64,000 nt of DNA from Candidatus Omnitrophota bacterium (lineage in GTDB: Bacteria; Omnitrophota; Gorgyraeia; Tantalellales; Tantalellaceae), in assembly GCA_043813915.1 (NCBI GenBank), contig JBDRKO010000001.1, positions 64,835 through 128,834 on the forward strand, given 5' to 3'. Both the position numbers and the translations under genes were made by a program. Below are positions 10,918 through 57,536 of this stretch, one piece after another. The notes below the pieces were generated by a model. The model saw nothing but the letters and a program-made list of their open reading frames with translations, had not been told where the DNA came from and did no database searches. Within the stretch, counting starts at the first letter, position 1. Every line of letters begins with the position of its first letter.

Positions 10918-11002
10918 GCACCCCTCCTAAGTTCTTTACCCTGAAGTATACATTGTTTTTACGAGTAATCAAACTCCCACATAAATAAAATAAAAAAATA
11001 AA

Positions 11003-11044
11003 AAAAAAATAAAAAAAAGGGAACGGCCGTTAACGACCGTTCCC
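11003..11044 (-). terminator. rho-independent terminator downstream of second pilin gene
   Basis: GGGAACGGCCGT-TAA-CGACCGTTCCC hairpin followed on the minus strand by a >15 nt U tract. Confidence 0.6.
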
Positions 11045-11067: not shown

Positions 11068-11397
11068 TTACTGGAGCTTATGTCCGGCAGTGCTGCATGT
11101 AGGTCTCGTTCCTGAAATATCATATGTGCCCTTAGCCGGACATGCCGGAGTGGCTTTCAGATAATCCGGGGAAAGAGCTGCGAGCGTGGCGGGGTTAGCC
11201 CCCGTATCCAGGTTATAAAGCACCATCGCCCCTTCTATCTGCTTCAGGTTGGATATACATGCATTTTTTTGAGCACTTTCTCTGGCTTTCACAAAGTTCG
11301 GTATGGCTATAGCAGCCAATAAACCTATAATTGCGACTACGATCATAATTTCGACCAATGTGAAACCCTTTTTACCCAATAATTTCTGCATTTTCAT
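11068..11397 (-). CDS. pilA: type IV pilin / GspG-like pseudopilin, probable major pilin
   Basis: MKMQKLLGKKG|FTLVEIMIVVAIIGLLAAIAIPNF; ACISNLKQIEGA motif; strong SD AAGGAGGTG 7 nt upstream; own promoter and strong terminator. Confidence 0.75.
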   Translation of the reverse strand: MKMQKLLGKKGFTLVEIMIVVAIIGLLAAIAIPNFVKARESAQKNACISNLKQIEGAMVLYNLDTGANPATLAALSPDYLKATPACPAKGTYDISGTRPTCSTAGHKLQ

Positions 11398-20498: not shown

Positions 20499-20817
20499 GA
20501 GTTCCTTGTGGTGCTTGGTAATAAAAATAGCATAGGGCAAAGCGCATAGAGCACAGCATATAGGTTTGTCGGGTTTGTGGAGTTTGTAGAGTTTATTGGG
20601 TCGTATTGACCGATGCCCCATTCGTGACTCGTGATCCGTGATTCGTGATTCGTTCACTACTTTTTGACACTCTGACACTTTGACACTCTGACTCTTTCTC
20701 TACCCTCGCGCTTCTCCTTCCGCTACGAACTATTTAACCTTTAAAACTTTTTAACTTTTCAAACTGCTCTCTCTCTGACCTCTGTCTTCTGACTTCTGTC
20801 TTCTGATTTCTGATCCC
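20499..20817. repeat. modular interspersed intergenic repeat, copy A
   Basis: Modules GCATAGGGCA..GCATAGAGCACAG, GTATTGACCGATGC, (CGTGAYTCGTGA)n, (TGACACTY)n, CTACGAACTAT, (TCTGTCTTCTGACTTC)n are shared with 42060-42605, 45053-45163 and 57217-57536. Confidence 0.55.
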
Positions 20818-21912
20818 TCACCTATGCACTCTCCTGCTGATGCTCAGAAGCAGGCCTATGCCGAGAAAGGTGACTATGGTATTGGACCCTCCGTAGCTGA
20901 TCGCGGGCAGAGGGAGGCCCACAACAGGCATCAGCCCTATGGTCATAGAGACATTGACTATTACCTGAAACGCTATCAATGTAACGACCCCGACAGCTAT
21001 CGCTTTCCCGTAGATGTCAGGCACATCATGCGCGATCTTTATCCCTCTCCATATGATGACCGCGTAAAGGCCCAGAAGCATCATCGCTCCTATGAAACCC
21101 CATTCTTCACCGATCACGGAAAAGATGAAATCCGTATGGCGTTCGGGCAGGAACCTAAGATAATTCTGCGTACCATTGAGCCATCCTTTCCCGAAAATAC
21201 CGCCCGACCCTATGGCTATTTTGGACTGTATTATCGTATACCCGGCCCCCAAAGGATCAAGGTTCGGATTTATAAAAACAAGCAGACGGTTCTTTTGATA
21301 ATCCTTAAGCAGCAGCCAGAGTACCGGCAAACTGAAAAAACCTAAGGACATTACGGATACCAGATGTTTTACGCGGGCCCCGCAGGCGAATAACATAGCG
21401 CAGGCTATAGGCGCGAGCACTATCGCCGTTCCCAGGTCGGGCTGCATGAATATCAGTAATGCCGCCGGCAGGACCAAGAGAAGCGCTTTGATAAAAGTCC
21501 CCAGCGATCCTATCTTCTCCCTTCTTTCCCCTAAAAAATACGCCAGCGCCAAGATGACCGTTATCTTCACGAATTCCGAGGGTTGCAGAGATACCGGGCC
21601 CAAAGTGATCCATCTTCTCGCGCCGTACCTTTCCCCGCCAAAGAGAAGCAATAATATCAGCGCCGCGATATTCAGAGCGTATGCCGCATACCCGAGATCA
21701 AGTATTTTCAGATAATCCATTCTCGAGATCACGAGCAGTATGAACAGACCCGTTATCACCCACGCGGTCTGTTTTATGACAAGGGCGCTGATCCCCCCGC
21801 CGCCCGCAAGACTGCTGGTAGCGGAATATACGAACGCGATCCCAAGCACGGAAACCAGGACCGCCGCGCCGCATAATATTTTATCCATCCTGCCGAGTTT
21901 TTCTTTTTTCAT
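20818..21912 (-). CDS. rodA: peptidoglycan glycosyltransferase RodA (SEDS family)
   Basis: FtsW/RodA family, directly downstream of mrdA. Confidence 0.8.
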   Translation of the reverse strand: MKKEKLGRMDKILCGAAVLVSVLGIAFVYSATSSLAGGGGISALVIKQTAWVITGLFILLVISRMDYLKILDLGYAAYALNIAALILLLLFGGERYGARRWITLGPVSLQPSEFVKITVILALAYFLGERREKIGSLGTFIKALLLVLPAALLIFMQPDLGTAIVLAPIACAMLFACGARVKHLVSVMSLGFFSLPVLWLLLKDYQKNRLLVFINPNLDPLGAGYTIIQSKIAIGSGGIFGKGWLNGTQNYLRFLPERHTDFIFSVIGEEWGFIGAMMLLGLYAVIIWRGIKIAHDVPDIYGKAIAVGVVTLIAFQVIVNVSMTIGLMPVVGLPLPAISYGGSNTIVTFLGIGLLLSISRRVHR

Positions 21913-34525: not shown

Positions 34526-35320
34526 CTATTTCCCTCCCGAAAGTTCTTCCGAACGTTCTTTCGCTTTCAGAACAGCTTCTTTAACGGCGTCACGTATCCC
34601 GCGGTCACTGAATACCTTGAGCGCGGCTTCCGTGGTCCCTCCTTTCGAAGCTACCTTATCTATCATCACCTGGGGATCCGCGCCCGAGACAGCGAGCAGC
34701 TCGCCCGCTCCCGTCAGTGTTTCAGTGACCAGTTTCTTGACGGTTTCCGCATTCATACCCATATTTTTTCCGGCACTCTCCATAGCCTCGGCCAGATAAA
34801 AAAGATACGCGGGTCCCGAGCCGGAGAGCGCCGTAACAGCGTCCATTTCGTCCTCATTGACCTCAACGACAGTTCCTACGCTCTCGAATATGGTCATAAT
34901 AGCGTTTTTGTCCTGGACTTTGTCATTGAACGATATTCCCGTAACGCTCCTTTTGATGAACGCCGCCATGTTGGGCATAGCACGGGCCACCGGCACTTCT
35001 TTACCGATCTTTTCTGTTATAGAACCGGCTGTTACTCCGGCCATCACCGATACTATTGTCTGTCCCGAAAGATAAGACCGGATCTCCTCCAAAAGGCCAC
35101 CGGCATCCTGAGGTTTGACCGCAAGCAGCAGCACATCGCTCTTATCCGTGATCTCCCTGATACTCATCGCTTCGGCGCCTGTTTCCCGGGACAGAACTTG
35201 GGCTTTCCGGGGATCCTTATCGTTAAGCAGGACCTGTTCCTTGCGTAGGGTCCCCTTGTCGATCAACCCGCGTATTATCGCTCCGCCCATATTCCCGCAC
35301 CCGAATACTCCCAGCTTCAT
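34526..35320 (-). CDS. proC: pyrroline-5-carboxylate reductase
   Basis: MKLGVFGCGNMGGAI Rossmann N-terminus and ProC C-terminal domain; upstream extension of the ORF rejected. Confidence 0.8.
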   Translation of the reverse strand: MKLGVFGCGNMGGAIIRGLIDKGTLRKEQVLLNDKDPRKAQVLSRETGAEAMSIREITDKSDVLLLAVKPQDAGGLLEEIRSYLSGQTIVSVMAGVTAGSITEKIGKEVPVARAMPNMAAFIKRSVTGISFNDKVQDKNAIMTIFESVGTVVEVNEDEMDAVTALSGSGPAYLFYLAEAMESAGKNMGMNAETVKKLVTETLTGAGELLAVSGADPQVMIDKVASKGGTTEAALKVFSDRGIRDAVKEAVLKAKERSEELSGGK

Positions 35321-35561
35321 CACGGACCGCCTTGTTCTTTTTGAGTAAGCCCTGCTTAAACACCTATATATGCAGAAGTAATGGTTAAAAGTATCATAAT
35401 CTTCCTCTGATGTCAAATAGGATTATCCCGGGCCTTTCAAATCCCCGGGGACAGCAGAGGTCCGTTCGGATCTGACGGACCGAAAACGCGCTTAATGCGT
35501 TTAATAACCATTAGAAGGATCGTAACAAGGTGCAGTTTGAAGATGGGCTTGAGAACTTGGC

Positions 35562-35790
35562 AATATCCGTCAATTTACCGATACCCCGGGCTAAAGACCG
35601 GAGCTTGCTTGCCCTGAGCGAAGCCGAAGGGCTTGCCCTGAGCGAAGCCGAAGGGCTTGCCCTGCCTGCCCCGCCTGTCCCGAGCAAAGCCGAGGGGAGT
35701 TTGTCGAGGGGAGCGAACCCGAAGGGTTCCCTATCGACCCGGCACGGCAGTGTCCCGAGCAAAGCGAGGGGAGCACCGGCGAATGGGTGA
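35562..35790. repeat. intergenic repeat element copy 1, abutting ftsA stop, with internal 25-bp tandem expansion
   Basis: TGTCAATTTACCGATACCCCGGGCTAAAGACCGGAGCTTGCTTGCCCTGAGCGAAGCCGAAGGG ... GGCGAATGGGTGAA; about 2.5 tandem GCTTGCCCTGAGCGAAGCCGAAGGG units plus degenerate units; inverted copy at 53135-53262. Confidence 0.55.
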
Positions 35791-35792
35791 AC

Positions 35793-36860
35793 TTAGAAAT
35801 AACTGTCAATAAAATTGATGATCTTATCCGCGGCACCTTTAAAAAGATCCGTGTTCCTCCTATCCTTTAGGCGTTCGGAGTATAAGTAGTCCAGCATACC
35901 CAGACTGCCTACGTACCCAACCCTATCCTGCGGCAATTTCTCGAAAGGACGGACCGAACAGTTCCCGATCTTCACGGGAAGCTTGAACACATTTTCCGCC
36001 GCGTCTATAAATTCTTCCGTCATCGCGTCCTCAAAAAAGACAACGATCTTACGGACTTTATCCCATCCCTCTAAACTTTTGGTATCCGAATAAAGCGTCC
36101 GGAGCGCCTCTTCCTGTACACCCGCCTCTCCTGACATCATCTCCTCGGTTCCGCCGTGCGATACGCGTACTCCGCACAATATGCCGTCGTTGAACACGAG
36201 CGTTTCCTGAAGGTCCCTGCGGATAGCCAGAAAAATAGCTCCTTTCTGCATATCCTCTTCCGAAAGTATCCTATAAGCCGAAGCCAGTCCCGAAAAAATG
36301 AACCCCGCGGGAACGGATCCGGAATCCGCTATGACCCTTTGCATGTTCCTTATGACGGAAGAATTTACCGTTACGACGTTCACGTGGGCATCCAGCTTGA
36401 TCCCTTCAAGGTTGAATGGATCATGAATACCGTCTTCCCCGTCAACCGCGAACCCGGCCACTATGCGGTGGATGGGCTCCTTCTCTATAGGCATCTTTAC
36501 GATAGAGGCCATTTTGATACATCGCTTAATGTCAAAACGCGATATCTCCCTGCCGTACTTAGACACGAGTACGGTACCTATCCCTTTCGTGAGACCCAAG
36601 GAGGAAGAGCTTATACCCGCGTATACATCTCTTATCCCCTTGGTATCCAGCCGTCCTATGACCTCTCCGATCGTATCGGTCGCGGCTCCGGAGTCAGAGA
36701 CAGCTCCCCTGAGGAACCCTCTGGAAGGGACCCTGGAGAATTTCTCTATGGCATAATCACCGCTCCGGTTCCATCTGACCGAGACGGCCGTGACATTCGT
36801 GCTGCCGATGTTCACCGTCGCAAAATATTTACCCATCGAACGTCCTTGTTTTGTTACCAT
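35793..36860 (-). CDS. ftsA: cell division protein FtsA
   Basis: Actin-like fold, 355 aa, immediately after ftsQ. Confidence 0.85.
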   Translation of the reverse strand: MVTKQGRSMGKYFATVNIGSTNVTAVSVRWNRSGDYAIEKFSRVPSRGFLRGAVSDSGAATDTIGEVIGRLDTKGIRDVYAGISSSSLGLTKGIGTVLVSKYGREISRFDIKRCIKMASIVKMPIEKEPIHRIVAGFAVDGEDGIHDPFNLEGIKLDAHVNVVTVNSSVIRNMQRVIADSGSVPAGFIFSGLASAYRILSEEDMQKGAIFLAIRRDLQETLVFNDGILCGVRVSHGGTEEMMSGEAGVQEEALRTLYSDTKSLEGWDKVRKIVVFFEDAMTEEFIDAAENVFKLPVKIGNCSVRPFEKLPQDRVGYVGSLGMLDYLYSERLKDRRNTDLFKGAADKIINFIDSYF

Positions 36861-39553: not shown

Positions 39554-40924
39554 CTACGCCTGCCCTCCGATGCTAGCGACTATTCCCGGACCGATCTCCC
39601 TGATATCCCCGGCACCGAGAATGAGGACCATATCCCCCGGCGAGGTAAGTCCCGGCATCGCTCCGGGAATATCCTCCTTACTCAGCATCTCCAGCACGGA
39701 GAACCTTCCCCTATCCATCCTGTCCAATATATCCTTGACCGATATTTTATTTAAAAGGCCTTCCTCGTCCGCGGAATATATATCCGTTAGTATCACATTG
39801 TCCGCCTCGTTAAAACAGCGGGTGAAATCCTCGGCTAGGTCAGCTGTTCTTGAATAGCGGTGAGGCTGAAAAACAACTGTCACTTTTCCCGGCGCGGCCT
39901 GTTTCGCGGCCCTTATGACAGCCTTGATCTCCGTCGGGTGATGCGCGTAATCTTCTATCACCCGGACACCCTTTACCTTGCCCACTTCTTCGAATCTTCT
40001 CTTTACTCCCTTAAAGGATCCCGCTCCCGAAACAATATCTTCCATACCCGCCCCCGCTTCCAGACAAACAGCCGACGCGTTCAAAAGGTTCATAAGATTA
40101 TGTCTTCCCAAAAGCGGGCAGATCACTCTTCCCATATTGCTTCCTTTCGCGATAAGATCGAACTCGATACTTTTGTCGAAGACCTCTCCGGAGCAGGTAA
40201 TATCGCATCCCTTTTTTATCCCGAACGAGACTTTCCTTACTTTTTCCGCGGCGGGCAGTATGTTCTTAATGGCCTCATCCTCTCCGCTGAAAACGAACGC
40301 CCCTCCTTCTGAAATATTGTTCAAAAACGATCTATACGCGTTCAAGAGGTCGTCCCATCCCTTGTAATTTTCCATATGTTCTCTTTCTATATTCGTAACG
40401 GACGCTATGTGTGACCGTATGTTCCGAAAATATCCGTCACTTTCATCGACCTCCGCAACGACCATATCCCCGGCACCTTTTTTCGCGTTACCTCCGATGG
40501 ATCCTATCTCCCCTCCGAGAATAACGGTAGGGTCCCATCCGGACGTCTCGAGTATATGAGCGATAAGCGCCGTTGTCGTGGTCTTGCCGTGAGTGCCTGT
40601 AACTGTCAGGGCGGACCCTGCTTCTTCCAGCATCCTTCCGAGAAATTCACTTCTCGGCAGGACGGTTATCCCTTTGTCCAAAGCCGCCATCAGCTCGGGG
40701 TTATCCTTTTTTATCGAAGACGAGACTATTACCATCTCAGTCCCTTCCGGGATATGAGAAGAGGCGTGCCCCTCGTACACCTTGGCGCCGCGTTCGCACA
40801 ATTCTTCTATCAGCGGGTTCGACCTTATATCCGAACCCGAGACCTTATCTCCGCCGGCTATACTTATCTTAGCCAGCGCGCTCATACCTATACCGCCTAC
40901 GCCTATAAAATGTATATGTTTCAC
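39554..40924 (-). CDS. murC: UDP-N-acetylmuramate--L-alanine ligase
   Basis: IHFIGVGGIGMSALA, Mur ligase domains. Confidence 0.9.
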   Translation of the reverse strand: MKHIHFIGVGGIGMSALAKISIAGGDKVSGSDIRSNPLIEELCERGAKVYEGHASSHIPEGTEMVIVSSSIKKDNPELMAALDKGITVLPRSEFLGRMLEEAGSALTVTGTHGKTTTTALIAHILETSGWDPTVILGGEIGSIGGNAKKGAGDMVVAEVDESDGYFRNIRSHIASVTNIEREHMENYKGWDDLLNAYRSFLNNISEGGAFVFSGEDEAIKNILPAAEKVRKVSFGIKKGCDITCSGEVFDKSIEFDLIAKGSNMGRVICPLLGRHNLMNLLNASAVCLEAGAGMEDIVSGAGSFKGVKRRFEEVGKVKGVRVIEDYAHHPTEIKAVIRAAKQAAPGKVTVVFQPHRYSRTADLAEDFTRCFNEADNVILTDIYSADEEGLLNKISVKDILDRMDRGRFSVLEMLSKEDIPGAMPGLTSPGDMVLILGAGDIREIGPGIVASIGGQA

Positions 40925-42051
40925 TTATTCCTCATTTTTCTTTTTTCCCGTTTTTTTTCAGCCTCGCCGATGACCGCGTCGGCCAGGTCAGGACCCGCTG
41001 ACGGTCTGGCCAGTCTCGCGGCGGAAAGGGCCATAACGCGCAGCTTTTCCTTGTCCCTCAAAAGTCCCAATATGTCCTCACCGAGGGACTCTCCGGTGAT
41101 ATCGGGCTCTTCTCTGTATACCGCGGCACCGGCCCCGAAAAAAACAGCGGCGTTCGATCTTTGATTGTTCTTCGGATGCGGATACGGGACCAGGATCATG
41201 GGTTTACCGTAATAAGCCAGTTCGAACACCGCGGCGGCCCCCGAACGCGAGATCGCCAGATCGCTCACAGAGTAAGCCCGGTCGATCCTTTCCATAAAAG
41301 AGAAAACTTTTCCCTCGACATCGTTGGAACGATAGAACTCCTTTATCCTGTCATGATCTTTTTTCCCCGTCAAGTGAAGGAACTGCACGCCTTCTCCGGC
41401 CGCGCGTTTAACGCAGAGGGCCGCTTCAGACGCGGCTTTATTCAGGAAGGAAGATCCCTGACTGCCCCCCATAACGAGGACCGTGAACTTACAGGGGTCC
41501 ATCCCCAGCTCCGCGGCGGCGGATCCTCTGTCATTTATGAGCATATCCACCCGCAGGGGGTTGCCCGTACATCGTACGCGTCCCGGTCGTCCTTTGAAAT
41601 ATTCTTTTGACCCTTCGAAACTCACGGCAATAACATCGGCGATACGTCCCAATATCCTGTTTGCCCGGCCGGGAGATAAATTCTGCTCGTGTATTATGAC
41701 GGGTATGCCCAGGACCTTCCCCGCGACAGCGGCCGCCCCGGAAGAATATCCGCCGAAACCTACCACCGCGTCAGGACGTTGCCGAAGAATAATAAAAAAT
41801 GATACCGCTATATCCAACATGAATTTCATCGCGAACACCAGTATACGCAGGGGATAAAACCCCAAAGGCATGGGGTTTATAGAAAGAAAAAAACTGGGGA
41901 ACCCGTATTCTTTCAGTATATTCTTATCCAGATCGCGTCTGCTGGAGACCAGAAGGATATCTTCCACTCCTTTTTTTCTTAGTTCCGAGGCCAGGACCAC
42001 CGCCGGGAAGATATGTCCGCCTGAACCTCCCGCCGCGATAATGATCTTCAT
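40921..42051 (-). CDS. murG: undecaprenyl-PP-MurNAc-pentapeptide GlcNAc transferase
   Basis: MKIIIAAGGSGGHIFPA, GT28 family. Confidence 0.9.
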   Translation of the reverse strand: MKIIIAAGGSGGHIFPAVVLASELRKKGVEDILLVSSRRDLDKNILKEYGFPSFFLSINPMPLGFYPLRILVFAMKFMLDIAVSFFIILRQRPDAVVGFGGYSSGAAAVAGKVLGIPVIIHEQNLSPGRANRILGRIADVIAVSFEGSKEYFKGRPGRVRCTGNPLRVDMLINDRGSAAAELGMDPCKFTVLVMGGSQGSSFLNKAASEAALCVKRAAGEGVQFLHLTGKKDHDRIKEFYRSNDVEGKVFSFMERIDRAYSVSDLAISRSGAAAVFELAYYGKPMILVPYPHPKNNQRSNAAVFFGAGAAVYREEPDITGESLGEDILGLLRDKEKLRVMALSAARLARPSAGPDLADAVIGEAEKKREKRKMRNK

Positions 42052-42605
42052 TAATATATCCTTGTGTATAAAAGTCTAAAGGTCTAAAGGTCTTTTAAGT
42101 AAATTGCCAGAAACCTGTTACCAGTTGCCAGACCAAAACAGTTTAAAAGTCTAAATGTCGAAAGTCCCAATAGACCATTGACTGTTGACCATGGACTATT
42201 GACCATTATGCGAATCCATCAATACTGACCTATTTGTCGCTAAAGACAATGGTCAATCGTCAATTGTCCATAGTCCAATATCGTCTCCGTCCTCTGACTT
42301 CTGTCTTCTGACTTCTAGCTCTCCGGAATACCCGCTCTTCTCAGTCCGCTTTAGCGGACTGGATGTCCAGTATCTTCCGAGCTCTTCCCCTCCATCCAAC
42401 GTATAGTCCTGGTCACGACAATAACTTCGTTACCTGATCGGGTGGGTATTCTAGGCGAGTTCCGCAACCCCGCTGCTTTGTTTTGCAAAGCAAAACAACG
42501 GGGTGAGGACTGTCTGAGCCCAGAATACCCGCCGATCGGGTAACCATTTTCACATCAGTCAATACAACCCGACAAACTCTACAAACGCAACAAACCCCAC
42601 AAACC
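42052..42605. repeat. 550-bp repeat-dense spacer between ftsW and murG with extended hairpin (about 42432-42542)
   Basis: GTCTAAAGGTCTAAAGGTC, TTGACCAT/TATTGACCAT repeats, TCTGACTTCTGTCTTCTGACTTC module, CAGTCCGCTTTAGCGGACTG hairpin, long imperfect inverted repeat GATCGGGTGGGTATTCTAGG...CCCAGAATACCCGCCGATCGGG around the internal hairpin CCCCGCTGCTTTGTTTTGCAAAGCAAAACAACGGGG, inverted copy of the TTTGTAGAGTTTGTCGGGTTGTATTGACTGATG module. Confidence 0.55.
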
Positions 42606-43691
42606 CTACTCCGCTTCCCGCGCCATGTTCAATATGAGCCCCACCGCGGCCATATGACATACAAGCGAACTTCCGCCGTAACTGATAAAAGGAAGCGGCA
42701 GACCTTTTGTCGGCAATATCCCGGACGATACCCCGATATTCACTATCACCTCGAACGCTATCATTGTCGCAAGCCCGAATACGGCGGATGACGCGAATCT
42801 TTCTTTTATCTTGAAAGATATCCTGAACGCGTACCACACCAGCACGGCAAAAAGAAATATCGTCGCGGCCGCTCCCATGAACCCCAGTTCTTCCCCGATT
42901 ATGGAAAAAATAAAATCCGTATGCGATTCGGGAAGGTAGAAAAGTTTTTGTTTAGACTCCCCCAACCCCACTCCGAGCAATCCTCCCGACCCCAAAGCTA
43001 TGAAAGACTGTATGAGCTGAAAACCCGCCCCTTGAGCATCTTTCCACGGGTTCACAACGGTCAGAATACGGCTTATCCTGTACGGTTTGCTCTTGACGGC
43101 CCATATCAGAGCCGGTATCATACCCAGGACTATTGGCAAAAGATGCCCGACCTTTATTCCCGCGGAGAACAGCATGACCGTTCCGATGAACAATATCGCG
43201 ACAAATGTCCCCATATCCGGCTCTAAAAGGACAAGACCTCCGATGAACCCCACGGCAAAAAAAGACGGGATGAACCCCTTGTAAACATCCTGTATAAGAT
43301 TTCCTTTACGGGCGATAAGATCTGACAGATACAGGACCATCACTATCTTGGCGACTTCCGACGGCTGGAACCCAAAACCAAATAACCGTATCCATCTGCG
43401 CGCTCCCCCGGCCATCGTTCCTACACCCGGGACCATCACTAATACCAGAAGCAGTATGACCGCTAGCATCGCGGGTCGAGCATATTCTCTTATAGCCCCG
43501 GGTTTTACGGACATAAGGAGCACCGCGACCCCCAGGCCTGAAAGAAGAAAGAACAAATGTCTTTTTACGAAGAATAAGCTGTCATGGTAACGCCCGTACG
43601 CATATATCCCGCTGGATGAATATATCATGACTATACCAAGCATCAAGAGCATCGAGGCCGAGAACAATATCATCTTGGAATCTTTTATCAT
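42606..43691 (-). CDS. ftsW: cell division peptidoglycan glycosyltransferase FtsW
   Basis: SEDS family, ATGA overlap with murD. Confidence 0.85.
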   Translation of the reverse strand: MIKDSKMILFSASMLLMLGIVMIYSSSGIYAYGRYHDSLFFVKRHLFFLLSGLGVAVLLMSVKPGAIREYARPAMLAVILLLVLVMVPGVGTMAGGARRWIRLFGFGFQPSEVAKIVMVLYLSDLIARKGNLIQDVYKGFIPSFFAVGFIGGLVLLEPDMGTFVAILFIGTVMLFSAGIKVGHLLPIVLGMIPALIWAVKSKPYRISRILTVVNPWKDAQGAGFQLIQSFIALGSGGLLGVGLGESKQKLFYLPESHTDFIFSIIGEELGFMGAAATIFLFAVLVWYAFRISFKIKERFASSAVFGLATMIAFEVIVNIGVSSGILPTKGLPLPFISYGGSSLVCHMAAVGLILNMAREAE

Positions 43692-45052
43692 GCGGACATG
43701 TCCTTACCTGCCTGTTTTTTTACCTCTCGCTGGAACACATCGCCCCGTTCCCTATACCCGGAAAACATATCAAAACTGGAACACATAGGTGAAAGCATAA
43801 TAATATCTCCCCTTGACGCTCTTTCCGCGGACACTCTTACCGCATCCGCCATATTCGCCGAACATATAACGGGGACCACACCGCCGAACGCCTCCTTAAT
43901 AAGTGTCTGCGCCTCTCCTATGACTATAACAGCCTTGACCTTCTCTTTTATCAGAGATGTAAGGGACCTGTAATCCCCTCCCTTATCCCGTCCCCCGGCT
44001 ATAAGTATTATTTTACCGTCAGTCGATTCTACCGCACGTCTCGTAGCGTCTATGTTGGTGGCCTTGGAATCGTCTATAAAACAGATCCCCTCATATACAC
44101 CCACCTTTTCCGTCCTATGTTTCAGCGGCCGGAAAGACGCGGCAGCGGAGACCAGCACCTCCGCGCTAATGCCCAGGATCCACCCTACTATAGCGGCGCA
44201 CGCCACATTTTCCATATTGTGTATCCCTGACAAAGACAGGTCTTTTTCTTTTATGGAAAAACAGTTCGCGCCGCTTTCATCGTTTATGCTTACTTCTTTC
44301 TGCGACACCTCCGCGCGATGCTTCCCTTTCCCGAAATAAACTATTCCGCTCTTGATCCTTCCTATCTCCTCATCGCCCTTGAAAGAAGCATTTATCACCG
44401 CCCAGTCATCGCCGTTTTGATTGGCGAATATTTTGAATTTTTCGGATCTATAGTCCTCGTATCCGCGGTGTCTGTCATAATGGTCCTCTGTTATATTGAG
44501 CAGGACCGCTATATGAGGCCTGAACGAGTCGATCGTTCCCAGCTGGAATGAACTCACTTCAACCACCGCGATATCCCGGGGAGAGAGCCCAGCCACTTCG
44601 CCTATCAAAGGATTACCTATATTCCCGCATACAACTGCCTTTCTACCGGACGCGTTGATCATATGCCCGATAAGTTCGGTAACGGTACTTTTTCCGTTGG
44701 TCCCTGTCACGGCGACAACAGTAGACACGCAGTACATATACCCGAGCTCCAATGTCCCTATGGCCGGCATGCCGACCGGGAGCACCCCCGCGTCATACAG
44801 CTCTTTCGTATGTACTCCGGGACTTATCACCGCAACGTCCGCTTTAGAACAGAACTCGCCGGTATGCCCTCGGGTTTCATATTCGAACTGACCATACCGT
44901 CCGAGCTCTTTTATCCTTCCTCCGATATCTTCTTCTCCGGCTTTTTCACTTACCTTAACGGAAAATCCTTTTTTCAGGAGGAATAACGCCGCCGCATAGC
45001 CGCTCACACCCAGCCCTAATATAAGTATTTTTTTATTTTTGAGATCTATCAT
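43688..45052 (-). CDS. murD: UDP-N-acetylmuramoylalanine--D-glutamate ligase
   Basis: MIDLKNKKILILGLGVSGYAAA start; upstream in-frame extension passes through a repeat and is rejected. Confidence 0.85.
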   Translation of the reverse strand: MIDLKNKKILILGLGVSGYAAALFLLKKGFSVKVSEKAGEEDIGGRIKELGRYGQFEYETRGHTGEFCSKADVAVISPGVHTKELYDAGVLPVGMPAIGTLELGYMYCVSTVVAVTGTNGKSTVTELIGHMINASGRKAVVCGNIGNPLIGEVAGLSPRDIAVVEVSSFQLGTIDSFRPHIAVLLNITEDHYDRHRGYEDYRSEKFKIFANQNGDDWAVINASFKGDEEIGRIKSGIVYFGKGKHRAEVSQKEVSINDESGANCFSIKEKDLSLSGIHNMENVACAAIVGWILGISAEVLVSAAASFRPLKHRTEKVGVYEGICFIDDSKATNIDATRRAVESTDGKIILIAGGRDKGGDYRSLTSLIKEKVKAVIVIGEAQTLIKEAFGGVVPVICSANMADAVRVSAERASRGDIIMLSPMCSSFDMFSGYRERGDVFQREVKKQAGKDMSA

Positions 45053-45163
45053 AATAGTGAACGGTGACTCGTAATTTGTAATTCGTGATTCGTGACTCGT
45101 GATTCGTAAGCAGTGAACAGTGAATCGTAGGGGCACGGCATGCCGTGCCCCTACCATCATCCG
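45053..45163. repeat. short intergenic repeat: (CGTGAYTCGTRA)n module plus perfect palindrome AGGGGCACGGCATGCCGTGCCCCT
   Basis: Directly downstream of the mraY stop; same CGTGATTCGTGA module as 20607-20640. Confidence 0.5.
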
Positions 45164-52069: not shown

Positions 52070-52106
52070 GAATATACCCCTCTGTTCTTTTCGGATGCGC
52101 GGCGCA

Positions 52107-52301
52107 TCAATGACCGCCGCTAAGAGCCCTGCCTATTATGCCCACCTGACTCTTGTAAAAACGGCTATATTCGCCTATTAGGTCCTTTCCCTTTCCTTTA
52201 TGTCCGGGGACCGACCTGTTTTTGTCCGCGCCCGACCGGGTCCTGCCGTAAATGGACCCGCCCATATCACATGCCTGGATATATCTTTTTACAGGTTTCA
52301 T
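52107..52301 (-). CDS. small hypothetical ORF (about 64 aa), translationally coupled to the upstream ORF
   Basis: ATGA stop-start overlap with ORF 52298-52489; basic protein; no recognisable family. Confidence 0.2.
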   Translation of the reverse strand: MKPVKRYIQACDMGGSIYGRTRSGADKNRSVPGHKGKGKDLIGEYSRFYKSQVGIIGRALSGGH

Positions 52302-52489
52302 CCGCAATCCTTTATCGTAAGATACGACCTTTTCCCCAATCCGGAGGACGAAACAACAAACCTCTTTACGCCCAGATGCTCTATCCCCGCGGGAAGCGCC
52401 CTGGCTTTCTTGATCCTTTCCACCATGTTCACGCAGTTTATGAATTCCATCTGTTTTTTATGGAATTTTATAGCGTATCTTCTGTACAT
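52298..52489 (-). CDS. small hypothetical ORF (63 aa) inserted between mraZ and rsmH
   Basis: Starts 22 nt after the mraZ stop; no recognisable family. Confidence 0.2.
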   Translation of the reverse strand: MYRRYAIKFHKKQMEFINCVNMVERIKKARALPAGIEHLGVKRFVVSSSGLGKRSYLTIKDCG

Positions 52490-52511
52490 GTTGCCCTCCT
52501 TAGAATGATCT

Positions 52512-57216: not shown

Positions 57217-57536
57217 GAGAGAACCTTATTTATGGTAAATAATATTTGGTGAATTGTAAACCGTAACAATCGCATAGGGCACAGGGCATAGAGCACAGTG
57301 TTGTATTGACTGATGCTCTAGACACCCTAACCCATTTCCATTACACATAACACATCACACATTACACGGCGTCTCTGTCTTCTGACTTCCGATCTCCACC
57401 TCCGTCATTGCGAGGAGGCGCCGAGAACGCAATGTTCGAGGTGTGCCGAGATCTCTGGGCGAGACCCGCAGACCGACGAAACAATCTCGTTCTTAGCTAC
57501 GAACTATGAACTACCAACTACGAACTATTTTCTGCC
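57217..57536. repeat. modular interspersed intergenic repeat, copy B
   Basis: GCATAGGGCACAGGGCATAGAGCACAG, GTATTGACTGATGC, TCTGTCTTCTGACTTC and (CTACGAACTAT)x3 modules in the same order as copy A; also shares AGGCGCYGAGAACG with 56690-56730. Confidence 0.55.

Follow-up and report, generated by a model that had tools for sequence, protein, structure and literature searches.

Hairpins formed by STRRs, repetitive sequences made up of short tandem repeats, lie between the co-transcribed genes hupS and hupL in cyanobacteria, where a role in transcript stability or translational coupling has been proposed for them (PMC2670836). In Nostoc PCC 7120 the heptamer GAC(C/T)AAT is repeated eight times upstream of recO, and heptamer arrays of this organism affect the expression of both recO and recF (bioRxiv 10.1101/2022.06.06.494920). 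Intergenic assemblages of TAACTGA and other heptamers were described by MacGregor in 2015 from Beggiatoaceae, Cyanobacteria, and Bacteroidetes; close relatives had shorter, repeat-free intergenic regions, the distribution was patchy, no spreading mechanism was evident, and for those Beggiatoaceae arrays that end just upstream of start codons, the binding of post-transcriptional regulators was suggested (PMC4679880). Here, we describe a 554-nt spacer that separates ftsW from murG in Candidatus Omnitrophota contig JBDRKO010000001.1, of which we analyzed a stretch of 64,000 nt (hereafter, the window). We think it likely that dispersed repetitive DNA, non-coding and specific to this lineage, has been inserted here into an otherwise compact division and cell wall (dcw) operon, and that the insertion was assembled as a mosaic from a library of modules. 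Four lines of evidence led us to this reading: what the spacer is made of, the modules that it has in common with intergenic regions elsewhere in the window, the fact that relatives do not carry it, and the failure to find a gene, a known RNA family, or a terminator within it.

We first define the interval. The open reading frame (ORF) at 42606–43691 (minus strand) encodes FtsW, a SEDS protein (TIGR02614, 392.8 bits, above cutoff); residues 6–359 of its 361 amino acids align with positions 2–356 of the 357-position model, and its TAG stop codon occupies 42608–42606. The next ORF, at 40921–42051 on the same strand, encodes MurG (TIGR01133, 261.1 bits, above cutoff), and its product matches, at 100% identity, the annotated MurG of a Candidatus Omnitrophota metagenome-assembled genome (MAG). 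Since both proteins are full length and align end to end with these NCBIfam equivalog models, the gap between their genes is exactly 554 nt (42052–42605) and is a true intergenic spacer rather than the site of a truncated gene. An earlier note, made from the sequence alone, had given the same gap; to this we add that both genes lie on the minus strand. They belong to a dcw cluster of 15 co-directional genes, mraZ to ftsA, in the canonical order mraZ, rsmH, (ftsL), ftsI, murE, murF, mraY, murD, ftsW, murG, murC, murB, ddl, ftsQ, and ftsA. From ftsI to ftsA, the junctions between listed ORFs range from -28 to +49 nt, with three exceptions: the 554-nt spacer, a 111-nt mini-mosaic between mraY and murD that is masked by an over-long murD ORF (R4, below), and a larger overlap of the ftsI and murE ORFs, which is probably an annotation artefact caused by an over-extended murE start codon.

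The expectation that ftsW and murG are normally adjacent was borne out in five Omnitrophota relatives, in which the two genes are separated by -4, 1, 14, 24–66, and 63 nt; the mraY-murD gap in the same five measures 14–54 nt. Across the contig collections searched, the nearest MurG homologs are only 56–64% identical, the nearest relative standing at 64%. In the 69 kb of sequence from the relatives we found neither arrays of this kind nor matches to any mosaic or module, and none of these relatives carries the same spacer with a conserved small gene in it. The absence of the spacer from relatives indicates an insertion that is specific to the lineage of the window. In a wider search of metagenomes, the 16-mer GTYGTATTGACYGATG found at least 120 loci, but this pattern is too short for a collection of that size: all were chance matches, and none shares more than ~25 nt with any mosaic.

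The locus itself is also present in NCBI assembly GCA_018817765.1, in JGI metagenome 3300014656, and in ENA ERZ27247128. Across the four assemblies (the window, the NCBI MAG contig, the JGI metagenome contig, and the ENA contig) the spacer is base-for-base identical, with no variation in array copy number, while the flanking genes differ by 1–12 single-nucleotide polymorphisms (SNPs). As a separate observation on the flank, the first 108 nt of the JGI contig (42817–42924, within ftsW) carry 12 differences from the window and are followed by 3.7 kb of identity, and 42832 is the first position of both the NCBI and the ENA contigs, a point inside ftsW and ~230 nt upstream of the spacer. This pattern suggests that, in the 3' part of ftsW, either strains differ or the assembly breaks.

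In composition, the spacer is a mosaic that combines three imperfect palindromes and one 13-nt module (GTATTGACTGATG) with six short-period tandem arrays whose units measure 7, 8, or 9 nt. The arrays and palindromes account for most of the 554 nt, and the mosaic takes up everything between the stop codon of ftsW and the ribosome-binding site of murG. Read in the mRNA sense, the order is a 9-nt array, the 13-nt module, palindromes H1 and H2, a heptamer array, palindrome I1, a GACWTTTA array, CTGGYAA copies, an 8-nt array, and AAGGA. The 9-nt array (GGGTTTGTN, 4.9 copies, 42566–42609, minus strand; Tandem Repeats Finder, TRF) starts on the ftsW stop codon, and an array of the same type is found at 20564–20594. 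It is followed by the 13-nt module, located at 42553–42565 on the minus strand by a motif search of the window. H1 (42428–42546, both strands; fold and inverted repeats I3 and I5) is a 118-nt imperfect palindrome with outer arms of ~28 nt that carry GGGTATTCYRG. The earlier note had recognized this inverted repeat, correctly as to its existence, but had put its length at ~110 nt instead of ~118 nt and had taken its inner stem-loop to be perfect; on sequence reading and folding, the inner stem-loop (42468–42503, both strands) consists of a 9-bp stem (TTGTTTTGC/GCAAAACAA), a 5-nt bulge (CTGCT), and a further 5 bp (CCCCG/CGGGG).

H2 (42317–42384, both strands) is a degenerate 68-nt hairpin with a third copy of GGGTATTCYRG, and at its tip sits the perfect 8-bp hairpin CAGTCCGC-TTTA-GCGGACTG (42342–42361); the latter, like the short tandem repeats that had been quoted alongside it, was recovered at its reported place in the sequence and by TRF. 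Next comes a 7/14-nt array of TCTGACT/TCTGTCT on the plus strand (42289–42316; TRF), which reads as GAAGTCA/GAAGACA heptamers in the mRNA sense and within which TRF delimits 3.4 copies of the 7-nt unit TCTGACTTCTGTCTTCTGACTTC at 42293–42316. I1 (42169–42276, both strands; repeats I1, I2, I4, and D6) is a hairpin of ~107 nt formed by two inverted heptamer arrays (GACCATT/GACTGTT... versus AATGGTC/AATCGTC...). Its TTGACCAT-type heptamers occupy 42173–42207 with a 14-nt period (2.5 copies) and recur inverted at 42248–42276 (TRF array 42247–42268, 3.1 copies), and its loop (42214–42227) holds a partial copy of a GTATTGA..GATG module. The remainder, all on the minus strand, comprises three to four imperfect copies of the 8-nt unit GACWTTTA (42135–42166; repeat family D1), three spaced copies of CTGGYAA (42104–42131; sequence read), and 3.1 copies of the 8-nt unit GACCTTTA, quoted earlier as GTCTAAAGGTCTAAAGGTC (42069–42093; TRF score 43, 94% matches), an array that ends 17 nt before the murG start codon. 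A Shine-Dalgarno-like AAGGA at 42059–42063 (minus strand) lies 7 nt upstream of the murG ATG (42051–42049; sequence read) and is the putative murG Shine-Dalgarno sequence. Three of these elements, namely the 9-nt array over the ftsW stop codon, H2, and the heptamer-array hairpin I1, had not been listed before.

Modules of the spacer recur, in different orders, in three other intergenic regions of the window. First, region R1 (20500–20817), directly 3' of rodA, shares with the spacer the 9-nt array, the GTATTGACC module, and the TCTGACT array, and shares other arrays with R3 and R4. Second, R3 (57253–57536) has in common with the spacer the GTATTGACTGATG module and a TCTGTCTTCTGACTTC array. Third, the mraY-murD mini-mosaic R4 (45053–45163) combines the palindrome GGGGCACGGCATGCCGTGCCCC with 6.3 copies of CGARTCA heptamers, of the same heptamer family as at 20620–20653. 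Among themselves, R1 and R3 share an array of the 14-mer GCATAGRGCACAG, the 13-nt module, and a TCTGTCT array, and R1 and R4 share ATTCGTG heptamers. Within the window, 42553–42605 matches 20615–20563 in inverted orientation over 53 nt at 87% identity (E = 2e-8 to 3e-8), which upholds the earlier claim of an inverted copy of a module at 20565–20620. Further cross-matches between mosaics extend over 27 nt at 93% (E = 6e-5) and over 25 nt at 96% (E = 4e-6); the latter links the TCTGACT array to R1, and the same array matches R3 over 16–17 nt at 100%. Copies of this TCTGACT/TCTGTCT array lie at 20774–20813 and 57373–57389, all in the same orientation.

The sharing is confined to the mosaics. When each of the four was searched against the window, all significant matches landed in another mosaic, and one chance-level 16-mer was found elsewhere. 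There are exactly three zero-mismatch copies of GTATTGACYGATG in the window (20603, plus; 42553, minus; 57303, plus), each within a mosaic; allowing up to two mismatches gives 6 matches versus 1.9 ± 1.2 in shuffles. Likewise, TRF arrays that score at least 40 and have a period not divisible by 3 are all non-coding and occur only in the four mosaic regions. The block formed by the 9-nt array and the module is inverted in the spacer relative to R1, and together with the differing combinations, this indicates shuffled modules and not copies of one element. We also noted, post hoc, that TGACT/AGTCA occurs 11 times in the mosaics versus 0.7 expected, that GACT reaches 15.8 versus 3.0 per kb, and that a TGAC core is present in ~4 of 11 mosaic unit families whose units are otherwise unrelated.

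We found no sign of a gene in the spacer. ORFs that lie wholly within it are at most 49 aa long, and the sole longer one (92 aa, 42559–42837) falls mostly inside ftsW in another frame. None of the six small spacer ORFs matched Pfam, and a 49-aa pseudo-ORF that runs through H1 gave only two matches among 1.84 billion protein representatives, both to unrelated repeat proteins. A decayed remnant of a protein-coding gene fits poorly: there is no residual similarity to protein families or to those representatives, and no former reading frame would be compatible with periods of 7 and 8 nt. The idea of an artefact of assembly or binning fares no better. Repeats often misassemble, and two of the assemblies do break at 42832 in ftsW, ~230 nt upstream, but the 554 nt are identical and continuously spanned in the NCBI, JGI, and ENA assemblies as well as in the window. 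Taken as one explanation, an artefact or a gene remnant is extremely improbable.

The earlier note had offered four options for the spacer: an internal promoter, an attenuator, a structured non-coding RNA, or decayed mobile DNA. For the second of these, no support was found. No terminator-like site was predicted in the spacer on either strand, and on reading the sequence we saw no T-run after H1, H2, or I1; an intrinsic terminator or attenuator was rejected on these grounds. A tRNA/tmRNA scan returned none.

An internal promoter would serve murG, murC, murB, ddl, ftsQ, and ftsA, with TTGAC cores of the arrays possibly acting as -35 elements. Internal promoters are known in the dcw clusters of model bacteria, and TTGAC is ~4-fold enriched in the mosaics (7.9 versus 1.9 per kb), with 6 copies in the spacer. 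Against this, a scan for sigma-70-like sites did no better in the spacer than in shuffles (2 weak sites versus 1.1 ± 0.9), a result that is weak evidence either way because the Omnitrophota consensus may differ. Only one such site is on the minus strand; its end lies downstream of the Shine-Dalgarno sequence, 2 nt short of the murG ATG. In R1 and R3, moreover, the GTATTGACYGATG module, which contains TTGAC, is directed away from the neighboring genes or lies antisense to them. We regard a promoter as an improbable explanation of the spacer.

The predicted structure is very stable. Over 42425–42550 (126 nt, H1), the minus strand folds at -67.3 kcal/mol, whereas dinucleotide shuffles give -34.2 ± 3.8 (z = -8.8; none of 200 as good), and the plus strand folds at -66.8 kcal/mol (z = -8.5). 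H2 has a minimum free energy (MFE) of -30.3 (z = -3.3), I1 has an MFE of -38.4 on the minus strand (z = -3.9) and -31.5 on the plus strand (z = -4.1), and for the whole spacer z is -6.0 (minus strand) and -6.3 (plus strand). Stability is thus well beyond that of shuffled controls, a comparison that the earlier note had proposed as a check. On sequence reading, the arms of H1 differ by three transitions, which give G-U pairs twice on the plus strand and once on the minus strand. Because H1 folds equally on both strands and its arm differences show no strand preference, we read it as a palindrome at the DNA level rather than a strand-selected RNA. Its sequence would fit a palindrome that drifts neutrally better than an RNA under strand-specific selection, although three arm differences are weak evidence on this point, and as the searched collections hold no closer relative, no covariation test of H1 is possible.

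These data bear directly on the option of a functional RNA, whether small or cis-regulatory; H1, for instance, might be a novel structured RNA or an RNase III/RNase E processing site under selection for uncoupling the upstream precursor-synthesis genes from murG-ftsA. The strong fold (z = -8.8 for H1 and -6.0 for the spacer) speaks for such a role, as do the position in the middle of a highly conserved operon and the identity of the spacer in four assemblies whose flanks carry SNPs. However, no Rfam family comes near threshold: a search of the spacer at permissive E-values gave best values of 0.5–3.8 at 14–17.5 bits, versus thresholds of 50–100, and the whole window yielded no gathering-level match. 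Stability is strand-symmetric, with arm differences to match, as a DNA palindrome would have it; no homolog exists in any relative examined; and about one-third of the spacer consists of modules common to unrelated intergenic regions. Of the structured-RNA option, then, the fold stands and a known family does not, and we consider a functional RNA or cis-regulatory element very doubtful.

The strand symmetry of H1 is equally what a mobile element would show. In this explanation H1, alone or together with H2, would be a palindromic element that is not autonomous, similar to a miniature inverted-repeat transposable element (MITE) or to a REPIN (a hairpin-forming pair of repetitive extragenic palindromic, REP, sequences), which inserted into an existing mosaic and depends in trans on a transposase or a REP-associated tyrosine transposase (RAYT) encoded elsewhere in the genome. 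A 118-nt hairpin with ~28-nt arms has the size and form of REPINs and of many bacterial MITEs, and the two adjacent hairpins carry GGGTATTCYRG three times between them, as if by local duplication of an element. Exact copies of GGGTATTCYRG are restricted to the spacer (42323, 42444, and 42520) in the 64-kb window; with one mismatch there are 6 further matches, and the total of 9 is near chance (4.0 ± 2.1 in shuffles). The window contains no second copy of H1. Although inverted arms are present, the sequences at the ends of H1, AAAATG and GAAGTT, are not a direct repeat, so there is no target-site duplication and H1 does not qualify as a MITE. Nearly all ORFs of the window are housekeeping genes, and among them we found no transposase, RAYT, Y1 transposase, or integrase. 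Plasmids and phages gave no match to the spacer (blastn, distant mode), and viral contigs gave 0 matches to either a 34-nt module pattern or an H1 arm-pair pattern. Together, these results make an inserted palindromic element an unlikely source of H1 and H2.

An integron attC site was rejected as well. Such sites have 5'-RYYYAAC ... GTTRRRY-3' core sites that bracket an imperfect palindrome, with an integron integrase nearby. The two ends of H1 read 5'-GTTACCC ... AGGTAAC-3' whichever strand is taken, which reverses the attC order, and no integrase was found in the window. Hence, of the four options, only decayed mobile DNA agrees with the data, and only once it is broadened to dispersed repetitive DNA.

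If the spacer is indeed such an insertion, we envisage that the mosaic would have been built from a genome-wide library of 7-, 8-, and 9-nt STRR-like tandem modules, the 13-nt module, and three imperfect palindromes. Several points weigh against this reading. The term genome-wide is drawn from four regions within 64 kb. H1 and H2, which make up about one-third of the spacer, have no second copy in the collections searched, and for this portion an origin as dispersed DNA may not hold. The four assemblies, identical as they are, may all derive from a single population, in which case their identity says little about selection. Finally, the expectation that the spacer is read through as part of the dcw mRNA is a prediction. 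It follows from two properties of the spacer, namely the absence of a predicted terminator and a transcript that is poor in C and rich in G (C 18%, G 27%; C/G below 1 in 10 of 12 sub-windows), a composition unfavorable for Rho loading, rut sites being C-rich and G-poor by established rule. Most likely, then, RNA polymerase would read through the spacer, and ftsW and murG would stay co-transcribed. The start of murG in relatives is adjacent to the ftsW stop or overlaps it, whereas here murG would be translated independently, from its own AAGGA.

In Escherichia coli operons, REP sequences and bacterial interspersed mosaic elements (BIMEs) are transcribed, and their hairpins stabilize upstream mRNA against 3' exonucleases. 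By analogy with these elements and with the STRR hairpin between hupS and hupL (PMC2670836), the three hairpins of the spacer, if active, might act as processing sites or as barriers to 3' exonucleases, which could allow the two parts of the mRNA, mraZ-ftsW and murG-ftsA, to reach different abundances or stabilities. That the spacer is purely neutral or selfish filler is at least as likely as that it has any function. A bolder proposal is that the TGAC-core arrays and GTATTGACYGATG are sites for a lineage-specific nucleic-acid-binding protein, either a cold-shock protein (CSP)/S1-like protein on RNA or a nucleoid protein on DNA, and that together with H1 they form a regulatory insulator dividing the dcw operon into halves that are tuned separately. 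We hold this to be a long shot; if true, it would give a functional use to repeats of the STRR type, described in 1990 and without an explained role ever since.

Several further features of the window touch on the mosaics. R3 contains, between its arrays, a GC-rich segment at 57395–57500 (GTCATTGCGAGGAGGCGCC...CGACGAAACAATCTCG) that folds marginally better than shuffles (z = -2.1 and -1.8); like H1 and H2 it is a unique core placed between arrays, but it is unrelated to them in sequence. R4 keeps the murD ORF open and adds 36 codons to it (MMVGARHAVPLRFTVHCLRITSHESRITNYESPFTI); the true murD start is likely the ATG at 45052, which would give a protein of 454 aa versus 452–463 aa in relatives. 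Both SEDS paralogs precede a mosaic: rodA (20818–21912), the last gene of mreB-mreC-PBP2-rodA, precedes R1, and ftsW precedes the spacer. Module order and orientation differ between R1 and the spacer, however, and with only four mosaics in the window the pairing with rodA and ftsW may be a coincidence.

Other non-coding intervals in and around the cluster were of a different nature. The mraZ-rsmH gap (52070–52511, ~440 nt), examined as a possible mosaic, has no arrays and is not a repeat mosaic. It contains a 63-codon ORF (52298–52489, minus strand) that is preceded by a strong AAGGAGG Shine-Dalgarno sequence and has no Pfam match, and which may encode an unannotated small protein within the dcw cluster. 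Downstream of the cluster, a 544-nt gap (35249–35792) holds GC-rich repeats of another kind than those of the mosaics, namely 2.4 copies of the 24-mer GCTTGCCCTGAGCGAAGCCGAAGG at 35607–35664 and 2.8 copies of TGCCCCGCC. The adjoining ftsA-like ORF (35793–36860, 355 aa) matches only positions 2–223 of the 371-position FtsA model, below cutoff, and no ftsZ follows it within the window. Elsewhere, an A-rich low-complexity tract (10981–11018) lies between two pilin-like genes, both with an N_methyl motif, and the NCBI MAG contig JAHITD010000082.1 ends near this tract, at about window position 11081.

The spacer reveals no new gene, RNA class, or mechanism. If our preferred reading of lineage-specific, dispersed repetitive DNA is right, mixed assemblages of short tandem repeats reach into a further uncultured phylum, Omnitrophota, and such repeats can invade the tightly packed, translationally coupled core of the dcw cluster, apparently without disabling the operon. 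This bears on how such repeats arise and spread, and on whether they act. It also carries a warning for annotation: the repeats add 36 spurious codons to the murD ORF and may fragment assemblies.

How, then, does the spacer compare with known systems? It is not a member of the REP/BIME, MITE, or attC classes or of any Rfam family, nor, as far as the 64-kb window shows, a demonstrable REPIN. With REPINs and with MITEs such as Correia, ERIC, and RUP, it shares a ~118-nt hairpin with long terminal inverted arms that is non-coding and lies between genes, but within the 64-kb window H1 lacks a second copy, a target-site duplication, and a cognate RAYT or transposase. With the REP/BIME elements of enterobacteria, it shares the character of a mosaic intergenic element that contains palindromic units and is located inside an operon, downstream of a stop codon. 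REPs, however, are palindromes of 20–40 nt with one conserved consensus and hundreds of copies, whereas GGGTATTCYRG is private to the spacer within 64 kb; and most of the spacer consists of tandem arrays, which BIMEs do not have.

The likeness to the heptamer assemblages described by MacGregor is closer. In both, several heptamer types occur per intergenic region, some arrays end just upstream of start codons (here, those of murG and murD), and relatives have shorter, repeat-free gaps (-4 to about 63 nt in Omnitrophota, the nearest relative being 64% identical in MurG). The differences are that TAACTGA occurs 0 times in the mosaics of the window, that Omnitrophota lie outside the list of phyla in that study, and that the spacer splits a core dcw junction and has long palindromes. 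Compared with cyanobacterial STRRs, the spacer differs in its phylum (Omnitrophota and not heterocystous cyanobacteria), in its unit sequences, in mixing 8- and 9-nt units with heptamers, and in having non-repetitive palindromes (H1 and H2) and a conserved 13-nt module among its arrays. The units that Mazel et al. reportedly gave in 1990 as canonical for STRR1–3 are not present. The GACCATT/GACTATT units of the spacer (42173–42207) are identical to the Nostoc heptamer GAC(C/T)AAT at 6 of 7 positions, an agreement that could easily arise by chance given the number of unit types, rotations, and strands compared. As in STRRs, on the other hand, 7-nt units form imperfect tandem arrays that are exclusively intergenic, inverted arrays form hairpins, and the whole lies between genes that are, or would be, co-transcribed; unit types recur at four loci within 64 kb, which may reflect a dispersal over many loci like that of STRRs. 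The spacer is therefore closest to the cyanobacterial STRRs and the mixed heptamer assemblages, and is a further member of the same kind.

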